This document shows positions 988-10,891 of a DNA stretch of 20,000 nt, in pieces. Numbering within the stretch: the first letter of the stretch is position 1; each line of letters starts with the position of its first letter. Where the stretch lies: NCBI GenBank assembly GCA_964566535.1, contig CAZMIO010000002.1:116905-136904 (forward strand), read 5' to 3'. The stretch is from an uncultured Methanosarcinales archaeon. GTDB taxonomy: Archaea > Nanobdellota > Nanobdellia > Woesearchaeales > CAZOXR01. A program made the translations under genes and the position numbers. A model generated the notes under the pieces. That model did no database searches, was not told where the DNA came from, and saw only the letters and a list, made by a program, of their open reading frames with translations.

Positions 988-2207
988 TGAGAGCAGGAAA
1001 AAGTTACATCAACAAGCTCTTCATCGTCAATAAAAGAACTTATTTCATTAACCTTAATCTTACATGACTCATCCACCAAAAATGTATCTCCCTCAAATAC
1101 TCTGTCCATCACGTCCCCATCCAAAACAAACCGAGCAGAATTCTCACCAACCAGATCATCCTCAAAAAACTCATCAACAACGTCAATATCAACATTATAG
1201 TCCTTTCCAATCAAACTAACCTTATTATCATTATATTTATCATTCAATATCTTATTAACCTTATAATCCAAAGAAACCTCTATTAAATTACCTCCCCGCT
1301 CCCCAATTTCATTAATCACAATATCTTCTACTTTCAATACGGTATCATCACTTAAAGTAAATTTCTCCCCTCTAGCAAACGTCCATTCATCTTTGTTATT
1401 AACATTAAGTCTAACTTGAGCATCATTCCCGTTATCTCCAATAATCAAAACCTTAACTTCAAACACCCCTCCACTAATATCATACAACCTCTCCCCTCCT
1501 TCTTCCAAAGTCTCTTTTTTACCATTAATTGTAAATTCAACCATATCAGGAACATTATCTCTCCCCTTGTTCAGAACAATACTGTCAATCCCCAATTCCA
1601 GTCCCTTTTTAGTAAACTTCTCTCCAGCCCTCAAACTCCTTATAAAATCGTCATTAATCTCAAATTTTACAACCGCTTCAGGATTATGCTTGTCTGCAAT
1701 TATCAAATTCTTCACATAATAGTCGTCCCCATCCACAACCAAATTATGAAGTTCTCCTTCTCCAAGAACCTTAGTCCTGTTATCAATTTCATAAACTAAT
1801 TTGTCATTAGCCTTTCCTTTCCTGTTCACAATCAAATCCTTAATAAAAAAATCAGCTCCTTCTTTCTCAAATTTATCACCCACATTAAGCAAAGGAGTAA
1901 TCTCTTGGTTAATATTTAACTTAACTCCAACCGGGTCAACGACTTCATTAATCATCAATACATTTAGTTCGAACCTTTTTCCATTAAACCAATATAGCCC
2001 ACTCTGCCCTTCCTTTAACGTCTCTCTCACAATCTTAGAATTCTTAACCTTCCCTTCACAATCTACAGCACATGTCTCACCTTCACCAACATCACATCTA
2101 TTATCCCCACATACCACAAATTGAAGTGAATTACATCCGACTACCACTAACACCATCACAACTACAGCAAGAAACAGATTATTATGCTCCCAGATTCCAT
2201 TGCCCAT
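984..2207 (-). CDS. Putative surface/lipoprotein with Cys-rich motif and four tandem beta-rich repeats (S-layer-like)
   Basis: 407 aa ORF. Hydrophobic N-terminus ending in VVGC (lipobox-like), then CGDNRCDVGEGETCAVDC, then ~80 aa units ending in LNVGDKF / LRAGEKF / FARGEKF / VFEGDTF. Confidence 0.65.
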   Translation of the reverse strand: MGNGIWEHNNLFLAVVVMVLVVVGCNSLQFVVCGDNRCDVGEGETCAVDCEGKVKNSKIVRETLKEGQSGLYWFNGKRFELNVLMINEVVDPVGVKLNINQEITPLLNVGDKFEKEGADFFIKDLIVNRKGKANDKLVYEIDNRTKVLGEGELHNLVVDGDDYYVKNLIIADKHNPEAVVKFEINDDFIRSLRAGEKFTKKGLELGIDSIVLNKGRDNVPDMVEFTINGKKETLEEGGERLYDISGGVFEVKVLIIGDNGNDAQVRLNVNNKDEWTFARGEKFTLSDDTVLKVEDIVINEIGERGGNLIEVSLDYKVNKILNDKYNDNKVSLIGKDYNVDIDVVDEFFEDDLVGENSARFVLDGDVMDRVFEGDTFLVDESCKIKVNEISSFIDDEELVDVTFSCSH

Positions 2208-7846: not shown

Positions 7847-8161
7847 ATGGAACCAATCCAAGTAATAGGAATAAACGTATTAGATGATAAAGAGCAGGAA
7901 GCTGCAAATACCCTAATAAATGGATACTATGAGAAAATTGCAAGAGAACTTAAGAACGTAACTTCCGTATCAGTCCATCTAAAAGCTCATTCAAAAGGCG
8001 GCAAAAAGAAATACGACATCAGGATTAAAGCATTAGCTCCAACAAGAGTCTTTGAATCACAAGAAAGCGACTGGGACTTAGCAAGAACCCTACATAAAGT
8101 TTTCAAGAACGTTGAAAGACAGATTCAGCATAAATTACACACTGATGAACAAAAGCTTTGA
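7847..8161 (+). CDS. Small protein, probable HPF/RaiA-like ribosome hibernation factor fold
   Basis: 104 aa. The pattern (short strand, helix ...YYEKIAR, VSVHLK, KYDIRIK, FESQESDWDLARTLHKVFKNVERQI) fits the beta-alpha-beta-beta-beta-alpha HPF layout. TTTAAA lies ~25 nt upstream. Family call is by eye. Confidence 0.6.
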   Translation: MEPIQVIGINVLDDKEQEAANTLINGYYEKIARELKNVTSVSVHLKAHSKGGKKKYDIRIKALAPTRVFESQESDWDLARTLHKVFKNVERQIQHKLHTDEQKL

Positions 8162-8184: not shown

Positions 8185-8301
8185 TAGCGGAGAGTGGATT
8201 TGAACCACTGACCTTTACCCTTAGCATACGCCAATATGGGTGTCTAAGGCTCTAACAAACCGTATGAGCCCATCGGGCACTCCTGACTGCCCTACTCCGC
8301 T
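8185..8301 (-). tRNA. Initiator tRNA-Met(CAT) with two 21-nt introns (37/38 and 43/44)
   Basis: Minus strand reads AGCGGAG TA GGGC AGTCAGGAGT GCCC G ATGGG CTCATA [intron 8262-8242] A CCCAT [intron 8235-8215] AGGTC AGTGG TTCAAAT CCACT CTCCGCT A. The A1-U72 pair and GGG/CCC anticodon stem are initiator hallmarks. The spliced product is 75 nt. Confidence 0.93.
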
Positions 8302-8333: not shown

Positions 8334-8519
8334 CCTTTTGTCACCCTTATTAAACTACTTAGTCAGCAATAACTTTATTTTAAATCTCACAGTTTAAATC
8401 ATTTAGACATGCTTCAACTATTAAATTATGATTTCTTACTACAACCCACTGGACATGGACCCTCGGAAGATATATAAATCATTTAAATAGTCTCAACAGA
8501 GAGGGAATGGTGATTTAAA

Positions 8520-9200
8520 ATGTTAGAAAAATTAAATTCAAAGATTGCAGAACTGATTGGTATGCATACTGGAGATGGAACATTGTACCGAACCAATACT
8601 GGCACTGTTTGGGAATTAAGAGGGGCCCTTAATGAAAAAGACTACTATTATGACAACGTCATACCTCTTCTGAGTTCAATATTTAACAAAGAATTTAAAC
8701 CAAAATTCAGAAGTGGAGGGAAAAATGGTTGTTTTGGGGTTCAAATATGTAAAAGAGAGGTTACTTCATTTTTTATCGATTATGGATTTAAACCCGGAAG
8801 AAAAACACATACTGTGAGGATTCCTGATTATATAAAAAAATCAAATAAACAAGTAAAATTAAATTTTATCAAAGGATTATTTGATACAGACGGATGTTTA
8901 AGATTTGACAAAAACGGGACAAATAGAAATTGTTATCCCAAAATAGAATTTGGATCTGCCTCTGAAAAGTTAATTGAAGACTTATCTTTATTATTAAAAG
9001 AACTTAAATTCAATAATTATACATGGAAAAGTAGAAATATCTCGAAACTATGTATCGCTGGGAAAATTATGCTTAAAAAATGGATAAAAGAAATAAAGCC
9101 CAAAAACCCAAAACATTTAAATAAATATGAAACGTTCCAAAAACTAGGTTATGTATTACCAAATGCCGAGGTGGCACAACCTGGTACTGCGCAGACATAA
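8520..9200 (+). CDS. Free-standing two-motif LAGLIDADG homing endonuclease-like protein
   Basis: Motif 1 IAELIGMHTGDG and motif 2 FIKGLFDTDG, both with the catalytic Asp. GGTGAT SD at 8509-8514 and TATATAAA at 8471-8478. No intein splicing blocks or flanking host exons visible. Confidence 0.9.
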   Translation: MLEKLNSKIAELIGMHTGDGTLYRTNTGTVWELRGALNEKDYYYDNVIPLLSSIFNKEFKPKFRSGGKNGCFGVQICKREVTSFFIDYGFKPGRKTHTVRIPDYIKKSNKQVKLNFIKGLFDTDGCLRFDKNGTNRNCYPKIEFGSASEKLIEDLSLLLKELKFNNYTWKSRNISKLCIAGKIMLKKWIKEIKPKNPKHLNKYETFQKLGYVLPNAEVAQPGTAQT

Positions 9201-9281
9201 TGATATGGCGTAAGATTGCTACATAGGTTGTAAAAATCCTGTTTCCTTACGGATTTGGGGGTTCAAATCCTCCCCTCGGCG
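9165..9281 (+). tRNA. tRNA-Ser(GCT) with two introns (19 nt at 29/30, 14 nt at 37/38)
   Basis: GCCGAGG/CCTCGGC acceptor, G discriminator, long variable arm (TCC-TTAC-GGA), T arm GGGGG-TTCAAAT-CCTCC. Removing 9195-9213 and 9222-9235 gives a perfect anticodon arm CAGGA-TTGCTAA-TCCTG and an 84-nt tRNA. Confidence 0.92.
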
Positions 9282-9300
9282 TTTTATTTTCTTCTTACTT

Positions 9301-9408
9301 CCGCAACAATAACTAGTTCATAAAGTTGCGGCAGGGAACTTTACGTTCCCTACAGAGGTCTATCGGACGAAGTCCTTAGGTTGCAAATCAACCCCTCGGC
9401 GTTTTTTT
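9301..9408 (+). repeat. Hairpin cluster ending in a duplicate of the tRNA-Ser 3' end
   Basis: Hairpins CCGCAAC/GTTGCGG, AGGGAAC/GTTCCCT, GGAC/GTCC, GGTTG/CAACC. 14-bp perfect direct repeat CCCCTCGGCGTTTT at 9272-9285 and 9392-9405. Confidence 0.75.
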
Positions 9409-9523: not shown

Positions 9524-10891
9524 TCATTTTCCAGATTGAGGTAAGTCAGGTTTAATAAACTCCCAATGATTACCTTCAAATTGCATTGGATACTTTGGAG
9601 TAAGCTCTTCATCTTTGTATCCATCTCCTTTAACCCTATGATATCCGCCACCTTGCCTAACGAAAATAAGATTAGTTACCTGCTTAGTATAAGGCGGTCG
9701 CCCGGACGTTTCAGCATATTGTTCTAAATGTGCCAATCCACTTTTTAATTTATTAATAACATGACTTGCTTTATTATAAAAATGTCCAAGAGATTTATCT
9801 TTATCCTCCGGAGTCGCCATACTATAAACAATGATCCTATCATGATTGTCCCAAGGTCCTTTTCTATTACTCCTCATAGGGATATGTGCAGGTGAACTTT
9901 GAGACATTATTTTACCCTCAAAATGGTCAAAGTGTCTGTCTAATATTTGCAATACAGTAACCAAAACCTCAAAAAATCCTTCCTTATTTGGATGGATGAA
10001 AATTTTAAAACATCTCTGACAAAATCTATCAATATGCCAAGAAGGTTGCGCTTGCTCACTGCAAATATTCATAGGATGGCCCTTCCCATAATGAACCCAT
10101 CTTGGTTGTTTCTCAAAATCTCTCCACTTTTCTCCTCCCCTTACAAATCCAATTTTATCTAAAAGAGCAATAACTGTTTGATTAAAATCCGAAAATGCCT
10201 GTTCACCTAAAGCTTCAATTTCAGCTCTAATATCAGGTTGGTGAGATAAGCCTTTTACTTTTATCTCTTTATCACCTTCATAATGTAAGTACCTAAACGT
10301 TAATCCAGATGGGAGTTCATCCCCTGGTATTCTAAACATGATATTGTCATTATCTTCCAAAACCTTACTTTTGACTCGTTTTTGATTAATGAATGTTCCA
10401 TTTGTACTATTATCCTGAATTACGTATCTTCTCCCCTTTTTGTCATACTTGATCATTGCATGGATTCTTGAAACACCTTTAAAGTGTGAAGGAGTCTTAA
10501 TATCTCCTGCTCTTCCAATGGTAATTGGTCTATTTCTTGGTAGAACGTGATGTTTTCCATCAAAACCCACAATTATAGCAAGTATTGGGTGAAATGTAAA
10601 TTCTATTCCGCCAATGCAAATCTTCTCAGTATCGCTAATAATATATCGTCCTTGATGTTGTATTTTGCCTAAATATATTATTTCACAATCAGGCTCAACT
10701 TCAATATAAAAAACATTATGTCTGATATCATAATAGATTTTTGCATGTTTTAGAGAAACATTAGGAGATGGCAATACAATATCATTTGATTTTGATCTTC
10801 CAATTGTAGTAACTCGTTTTGTTAACTCAAAGTCTCCACTATGGCATGTGAGAATTGCTATTGGTTCTTCTTCTTCGTGTTTAAAGAACAT
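9524..10891 (-). CDS. Tandem FHA-domain protein with uncharacterised C-terminal domain
   Basis: FHA1: TIGRSKSNDIVL...VSLKHAKI. FHA2: TIGRAGD...VSRIHAMI...DNSTNGTFIN. A ~200 aa C-terminal domain follows. Confidence 0.85.
   Translation of the reverse strand: MFFKHEEEEPIAILTCHSGDFELTKRVTTIGRSKSNDIVLPSPNVSLKHAKIYYDIRHNVFYIEVEPDCEIIYLGKIQHQGRYIISDTEKICIGGIEFTFHPILAIIVGFDGKHHVLPRNRPITIGRAGDIKTPSHFKGVSRIHAMIKYDKKGRRYVIQDNSTNGTFINQKRVKSKVLEDNDNIMFRIPGDELPSGLTFRYLHYEGDKEIKVKGLSHQPDIRAEIEALGEQAFSDFNQTVIALLDKIGFVRGGEKWRDFEKQPRWVHYGKGHPMNICSEQAQPSWHIDRFCQRCFKIFIHPNKEGFFEVLVTVLQILDRHFDHFEGKIMSQSSPAHIPMRSNRKGPWDNHDRIIVYSMATPEDKDKSLGHFYNKASHVINKLKSGLAHLEQYAETSGRPPYTKQVTNLIFVRQGGGYHRVKGDGYKDEELTPKYPMQFEGNHWEFIKPDLPQSGK

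Follow-up and report, generated by a model that had tools for sequence, protein, structure and literature searches.

In the window, by which the whole 20,000-nt stretch of DNA that was analysed is meant, a gene for a LAGLIDADG endonuclease runs into the 5' end of a tRNA-Ser(GCU) gene with two introns, and a tRNA-Met(CAU) gene lies upstream on the opposite strand. The features are listed in Table 1. The positions given for the ORF, the tRNA, the intron sites, and the TATA-like word in a preliminary description of this DNA were all correct, as was its reading of exon 1 as codons of the ORF frame. The initiator identity of the tRNA-Met is suggested by its A1-U72 pair and the CAU anticodon. Two further genes were noted near the locus, one for a 104-aa ribosomal S30AE/HPF-like protein (7847-8161, + strand), which is unusual in a DPANN archaeon, and one right after the tRNA locus for a 455-aa protein that has two FHA domains and no annotation in its C-terminal half (9524-10891, - strand). 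The window stretch was present in marine and vent DNA sequencing runs; none of the RNA runs among the sequencing runs listed carried it.

Table 1. Features of the nuclease and tRNA-Ser(GCU) locus, in window positions.
Feature	Position	Strand	Description
tRNA-Met(CAU), probably initiator	8185-8301	-	Two inserts (anticodon loop; variable/T region); Rfam RF00005, 42 bits
Non-coding left module of the putative cassette	8393-8519	+	blastn matches at 11 other places (E < 1e-3)
CACTGGACA box	8447-8455	+	Upstream of the BRE/TATA of the nuclease gene
Putative TATA box of the nuclease gene, TATATAAA	8471-8478	+	Function suggested by sequence
SD-like GGTGA of the nuclease gene	8509-8513	+	Function suggested by sequence
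Nuclease ORF (P0001)	8520-9200	+	226 aa, predicted monomeric double-motif LAGLIDADG endonuclease; last 36 bases within the tRNA gene
BRE-like element and TATA (TTTAAATA, 9116-9123)	9110-9123	+	Encoded by Lys198-His199-Leu200-Asn201; 49 nt before the tRNA
tRNA-Ser(GCU)	9165-9281	+	Two BHB introns, at 29/30 and 37/38
Exon 1	9165-9194	+	Doubles as codons AEVAQPGTAQ in the ORF frame
BHB intron 1, at 29/30	9195-9213	+	19 nt; contains the genomic stop TAA, 9198-9200
Exon 2	9214-9221	+	Anticodon GCT
BHB-type intron 2, canonical 37/38 site	9222-9235	+	14 nt
Exon 3	9236-9281	+	Long variable arm, T-arm, acceptor 3' strand, discriminator G
T-rich tract	9282-9296	+	Function suggested by sequence
Degenerate second copy of the tRNA 3' end	9379-9401	+	T-arm-like hairpin and acceptor strand; 87% over 30 nt to 9260-9288

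The tRNA-Ser gene was missed by ARAGORN and Rfam in the unspliced locus, and ARAGORN called tRNA-Ser(gct) once both introns had been removed in silico; a low-threshold ARAGORN search over the genome returned noise. The only Ser(GCU) pattern match in the genome of the window (G000, 91% complete) was this gene. Each intron has a 4/4 central BHB helix with two 3-nt bulges, removal of the introns in silico restores the cloverleaf, and an EndA gene is present in the genome, so that splicing is predicted. The inner helix of intron 1 has 4 bp. The outer helix of intron 2 has 2 bp in the unspliced gene and 6 bp after removal of intron 1, and intron 1 is therefore probably spliced before intron 2. An identity as tRNA-Cys(GCA) was rejected because the long variable arm, the G discriminator, and the BHB geometry favour Ser(GCU). 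It was also considered whether the ORF is part of a large tRNA intron, encoded in the manner of I-DmoI, and this was rejected because the introns are 19 and 14 nt and the window holds no upstream exon. The T-rich tract after the gene is a probable terminator for the tRNA and for any read-through mRNA. From 9300 to 9401, the degenerate copy of the 3' end of tRNA-Ser comes after three small hairpins and is itself followed by a T tract. Downstream 3' duplicates resembling that of the window were seen at L044 and L252, and a 29-nt piece matches L263. L256 (G079, ~1300-1600, reverse strand) has, in tandem, a short leader resembling tRNA, a Ser(GCU) copy with two introns and no T-arm, and a complete intron-less Ser(GCU) gene.

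Intron 1 starts on a codon boundary and supplies Thr-TAA to the ORF. When intron 1 alone is removed, the frame gains 32 residues and stops at TAA 9310-9312, and when both introns are removed it ends in Asp-Cys-TAA; these three isoform stops are as previously proposed. The claim that the stop comes from intron 1 holds for the unspliced frame, but the frame would end even without the intron, since a stop in the spliced anticodon loop follows one codon later.

The LAGLIDADG_3 domain (PF14528, E 7e-12) was the only Pfam match of P0001. In the predicted model (pLDDT 92.4), the two LAGLIDADG helices lie at residues 7-18 and 110-124, each with an acidic end residue, and the last helix reaches residue 209; the tRNA gene encodes residues 216-226, and this tRNA-derived tail is modelled with low confidence. 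The acidic residues D19 and D124 are invariant in 47/47 aligned proteins, which are a selection from the best 120 of 226 matches. Foldseek gave I-Tsp061I as the best match (E 9e-11, TM 0.68/0.75), this enzyme was also the best profile match, and its N-x-x-H-L motif sits at the place of NPKHL in P0001. P0001 is thus, by fold and by its two motifs, a predicted LAGLIDADG homing endonuclease that would cleave site-specifically. It is free-standing, with its own putative promoter and start, outside any intron or intein, and with a complete tRNA downstream. The nearest labelled relatives are from Woesearchaeota; a viral origin was rejected, as no viral relative does better than E 2e-13 or 37% identity. 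Very unlikely is a domesticated protein, such as a regulator resembling WhiA or a factor that helps to splice the adjacent intron-rich tRNAs. WhiA does occur among the fold matches (rank 38), the tRNA neighbourhood is constant, and most tRNAs of the clade have introns, but the best matches are endonucleases, the catalytic residues are kept, the P0001 model has no C-terminal HTH, and most relatives that splice the same introns lack the nuclease.

Peptides resembling translated tRNA were found at the C-termini of 83 of the best 120 proteins (out of 226 matches at E 0.001, query included), a count made at the peptide level only. Among these, 35 have their stop at tRNA nt 13-15, 25 continue past the end of exon 1 in the frame of the window, 22 use the second frame, and 1 the third; the other 37 proteins have no tRNA peptide. 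Judged by the sequences, the overlap is not a chance stop loss, since most of the best-matching proteins end in such tRNA-derived peptides, and LAGLIDADG homologues do recurrently end in tRNA 5' halves, as the preliminary description had suggested checking. At the DNA level, the 5' end of tRNA-Ser(GCU) lies at most 70 nt from the nuclease stop in 23/23 loci examined in the clade, a set that omits duplicates (L019, L100), an interrupted locus (L103), and truncated ones (L031, L035, L036, L046, L052). The ORF overlaps the tRNA in 12 of the 23 and stops 6-70 nt upstream in 11, so it is not the case that all homologues stop upstream of the tRNA. The overlapping stops are in the D-arm at four loci, in the second codon of the 29/30 intron at three, including the window, and further on at five. 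The same frame meets a stop at nt 13-15 in 68 of 99 nuclease-free Ser(GCU) gene copies, and in 20 it meets one at nt 37-39. TAG or TAA is usual in the D-stem at nt 13-15; the window has CAA there and so reads on, and an empty allele (G250) reads exactly as the tail of the window does, intron stop included. By this comparison, the stop position inside the intron is incidental, since the stops of relatives are spread over D-arm, intron, and anticodon loop in three frames or lie upstream, and a nuclease-free gene has the same stop.

These counts bear on the proposal that the overlap is a selected brake, in which a cut of the read-through RNA by RNase P or EndA leaves a non-stop mRNA and limits a toxic nuclease. 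With the stop inside the tRNA, any complete mRNA is also a pre-tRNA, and overlaps are seen in clades docked on other tRNAs as well. RNase P RNA, EndA, pelota, and an NFACT/Rqc2-like gene are all in the genome, so that a non-stop mRNA from a cut at 9164/9165 or 9194/9195 could be handled; HARP was not found in G000 (91% complete). A brake was already proposed for T4 segB, by cleavage between the last and the stop codons during maturation of tRNA-Arg (PMC2330249). Against the brake, 11/23 loci stop before the tRNA, stop positions and frames vary, and nuclease-free tRNA genes have natural stops in that frame. Cleavage of the transcript at 9164/9165 would leave residues 1-215 encoded, and with them the whole predicted fold, and the nuclease gene has its own candidate regulon box. 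For segB and segG, RNase E processing does not prevent mobility (PMC2988022). A selected brake is thus improbable; the non-stop mRNA put forward in the preliminary description is a plausible consequence of RNase P processing, but its use, or that of the intron stop, as a selected control is not borne out by the varied stops and frames.

The nuclease genes of more distant clades are docked on other tRNAs, with overlap of the 5' end in some and, in others, of the 3' end on the opposite strand, and a crude regular expression found a T-arm word near 51/72 of their genes. In G000 itself, the ends of two further LAGLIDADG genes lie within tRNA genes, and another begins just after a tRNA gene. At G000:C1:55817-56650 (L007), a LAGLIDADG ORF stops in a tRNA-Pro-like 5' end, with a stranded tRNA 5' fragment upstream. 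At G000:C3:46029-46700 (L006), the ORF ends in a tRNA-Ile-like 3' end on the opposite strand; this locus has the left module of the window, and its protein is only 24% identical to that of the window. Stand-alone LAGLIDADG ORFs also lie against or overlap the tRNA splicing endonuclease gene (G000:C4:26962-27678) and two genes that we take, from their N-termini, to be MetRS-like (C6:18826-20046) and taw1-like (C1:204973-206250).

The BRE/TATA inside the coding tail probably drives the tRNA, as had been suggested. His199 is CAT and Leu200 is TTA in 16/16 loci that keep the KHL motif near the tRNA; for comparison, the top codon accounts for 27-83% in 13 other conserved Leu columns, and TTA makes up 42% of all Leu codons. 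The codon test only suggests selection at the DNA level, because the 16 loci were chosen after the motif had been noticed, with the other 7 of the 23 left out, and are related. At L017, L105, L106, and L109, the TATA overlaps the stop codon of the nuclease instead, and L032 has a separate promoter after the nuclease ORF. The strongest evidence for promoter capture is the tail in G115, where the nuclease gene has been replaced by another ORF and its last 30 codons are kept before the tRNA, 26/30 identical to the G196 protein. This also fits the earlier expectation that the ORF would be hard to delete cleanly. The spacing argues against the promoter reading, as the captured TATA lies 42-56 nt upstream of the tRNA, beyond the usual 31-34 nt found in 46/73 empty loci with a TATA-like word; a leader of ~20 nt is therefore implied. 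The replacing ORF in G115 is presumably Fic-like, by motif, and at L349 (~450-1400) it has short terminal inverted repeats and lies where the nuclease gene was. At L103 (G287), a ~1 kb insert with a transposase-like ORF (by eye) lies between the nuclease gene and the tRNA, and the near-identical L032 is without it. A CCAGAC word, complementary to the D-loop, was seen in the tRNA leaders of L032, L033, L103, L271, and G000:C1:49878-50021, and a GGTCGC hairpin word is common to the leaders of L256, L277, L294, L308, L309, and L324.

The nuclease is optional at a fixed locus beside a conserved gene, and empty cognate alleles exist. A nuclease score >155 bits was obtained in 8/301 genomes of the order, and the Ser(GCU) clade nuclease occurs in 1/3, 1/5, 1/26, and 1/2 genomes of four families, several of the genomes being incomplete; repeated loss or incomplete genomes could also give this patchy distribution. 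The back-to-back iMet/Ser layout was found by eye without the nuclease in 14/99 nuclease-free Ser(GCU) copies, and the tRNA-Met(CAU) of the window would be the partner of tRNA-Ser(GCU) at such an empty locus. In 5/22 loci with upstream DNA, a stranded promoter and 21-35 nt of a tRNA 5' end precede the cassette; the fragment at L020 is intron-less to nt 35. The filled allele of G102 and the empty one of its genus mate G250 have the same promoter and first 28 tRNA nt, after which the G102 cassette begins, and the downstream tRNA of G102 differs at three D-stem sites and therefore came from elsewhere. G059 has both the gene and the 29/30 intron, and its genus mates G323 and G324 have neither. The window holds no stranded tRNA 5' fragment. 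An integrase-type element (SSV/pNOB8-like) was rejected, since the ORF is LAGLIDADG, the flanking ORFs are S30AE-like and FHA, and the left junctions vary from nt 21 to 35.

It was also weighed whether a once-mobile gene is now a passenger, its stop lost by drift and its tail kept as the promoter of an essential tRNA. G115 shows that the tail alone is needed, relatives are interrupted by a long insert (L103) or truncated (L036), and an empty allele was not seen in the species of the window: among contigs from 4 DNA runs, of which X2 and X3 appear to be a single data set, none has a junction that bypasses the ORF, and the Ser(GCU) gene without introns in these contigs probably belongs to another organism. 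Both motif aspartates are nevertheless invariant and the ORF is intact, and the stranded fragments are still nearly perfect, which implies recent insertions. The passenger reading is accordingly given little credence, even less than the brake.

An intron between the D-arm and the anticodon was found in 5/6 nuclease-bearing and 14/89 nuclease-free genes (Fisher p 0.001, which is overstated by kinship), and the 37/38 intron, in 5/6 and 56/89, showed no link. The counts are from one order-wide pattern search, from which three non-GCU matches, one tandem partial copy, and nine short-upstream loci were dropped; G209, G182, G291, and three off-target second matches are left out as well, and G273, among the 89, is marked unpublished. 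By eye, 20/23 clade loci have the 29/30 intron and L017, L105, and L106 are without it; the empty alleles of G250 and G189 carry it, and the relic allele of G115 does not. For a target in the neighbouring tRNA gene and a resistant own allele, the breakpoints at nt 21-35 and the intron enrichment fit, but the intron-bearing empty alleles and the intron-less filled ones do not. The 29/30 intron may still protect the cassette's own copy from cutting.

The left module is common to other nuclease and repair genes of G000 and aligns with the upstream modules of L020 and L101. The CACTGGACA box within it has 21 copies in the genome against 3.8 expected, with a TATA-like word at fixed spacing in 17/21. 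It precedes several LAGLIDADG genes and Bro-N, Cas4-like, integrase, and RNase H-like genes, and one copy precedes a short ORF just upstream of radA. The box is a candidate repair/recombination regulon element, and since the nuclease gene has one, transcriptional control would be a real alternative for its regulation.

Taken together, the locus is probably a homing endonuclease cassette of the free-standing LAGLIDADG kind, which in this Woesearchaeota-type archaeon is docked on the tRNA-Ser(GCU) 5' end. The nuclease gene, intact and with two motifs, adjoins tRNA-Ser(GCU) in relatives too, where loci that otherwise match may have it or lack it, and some genomes have the host's promoter and tRNA 5' fragment stranded upstream and a different, intron-bearing 5' half after the gene. 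The predicted targets of the enzyme are tRNA-Ser(GCU) alleles without the nuclease, which it would cut within the anticodon arm or 5' of it; their repair would then copy in the module, the ORF, and a replacement tRNA 5' half. Such a cassette must supply a tRNA promoter, for which the old N-x-x-H-L protein motif may have been recoded as BRE/TATA. Where that promoter lies within the coding sequence, the reading frame would often continue into the tRNA and end at the first stop met, which would be the D-arm TAG/TAA where the D-stem is GCATA, and the intron or anticodon loop where it is GCACA, as in the window. The 29/30 intron might shield the cassette's copy, and RNase P/EndA processing of read-through RNA would remove the stop as a side effect. 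A broader proposal, which is possible but speculative, is a large DPANN family of chromosomal homing endonucleases with one clade per tRNA isoacceptor, as cassettes that replace the tRNA promoter and 5' half, protect themselves by a BHB intron across the cut site, make the host dependent on their coding tail for tRNA transcription, are switched on via a radA-type promoter box, and are damped by tRNA processing. The origin of non-canonical archaeal tRNA introns and tRNA fragments is usually credited to integrating viruses and plasmids; if the broader proposal is true, such cassettes would be a main driver of the gain of non-canonical tRNA introns in these archaea. To that question the locus brings a named enzyme with a predicted target gene, along with alleles that are naturally filled, empty, or relics. 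One stretch of its DNA is both a protein motif and a putative TATA box, and another is both protein tail and tRNA exon. The layout of a nuclease gene with a tRNA promoter in its last codons, running into the tRNA, is common to many relatives, and the family is a pool of putative meganucleases with tRNA genes that standard finders miss.

No description of free-standing LAGLIDADG genes overlapping archaeal tRNA genes was found in the literature searched, where supplements of genome papers could mention one; the relevant part of PMC6125680 covers group I rRNA introns only. By analogy, the window enzyme would be of the I-Tsp061I type and work like T4 SegB, by intronless homing at tRNA genes. It has the archaeal monomeric fold and two acidic motifs of I-Tsp061I and I-DmoI, and shares N-x-x-H-L with I-Tsp061I. 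Those enzymes are encoded inside rRNA BHB introns, whereas the window ORF lies outside the intron and enters the exon from upstream; the I-DmoI frame also crosses a splice junction. Homing endonuclease genes of fungal mitochondria carry a replacement piece of rps3 or atp6, and in-frame rps3-LAGLIDADG fusions have been described there (PMC7902536). Like the window cassette, these elements supply the displaced part of a host gene, but theirs are the 3' ends of organelle protein genes and in the window it is a tRNA 5' end with its promoter. In tRNA-Thr(GGU) of Caldiarchaeum subterraneum, an insertion extends between a stranded 5' fragment and nt 27 of a rebuilt tRNA with a gained intron, and holds one ORF (813 bp) and a multi-copy non-coding region (PMC3293823). 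This architecture of stranded fragment, ORF, and non-coding module resembles the window cassette. The authors read it as integrase-type recombination, the sections of that paper on the insertion do not identify the ORF as LAGLIDADG, and, unlike in the window, they describe no overlap of ORF and tRNA and no promoter capture. T4 SegB is a free-standing GIY-YIG homing endonuclease in a phage tRNA cluster that cuts in tRNA genes and spreads with the flanking tRNAs (PMC2330249). The window gene is likewise free-standing beside tRNA genes and missing from related genomes. It differs from phage-borne SegB, with its T-arm targets, in being a chromosomal archaeal LAGLIDADG gene with a single isoacceptor as its predicted target, and in that its ORF codes through the tRNA 5' end and holds the probable tRNA promoter.
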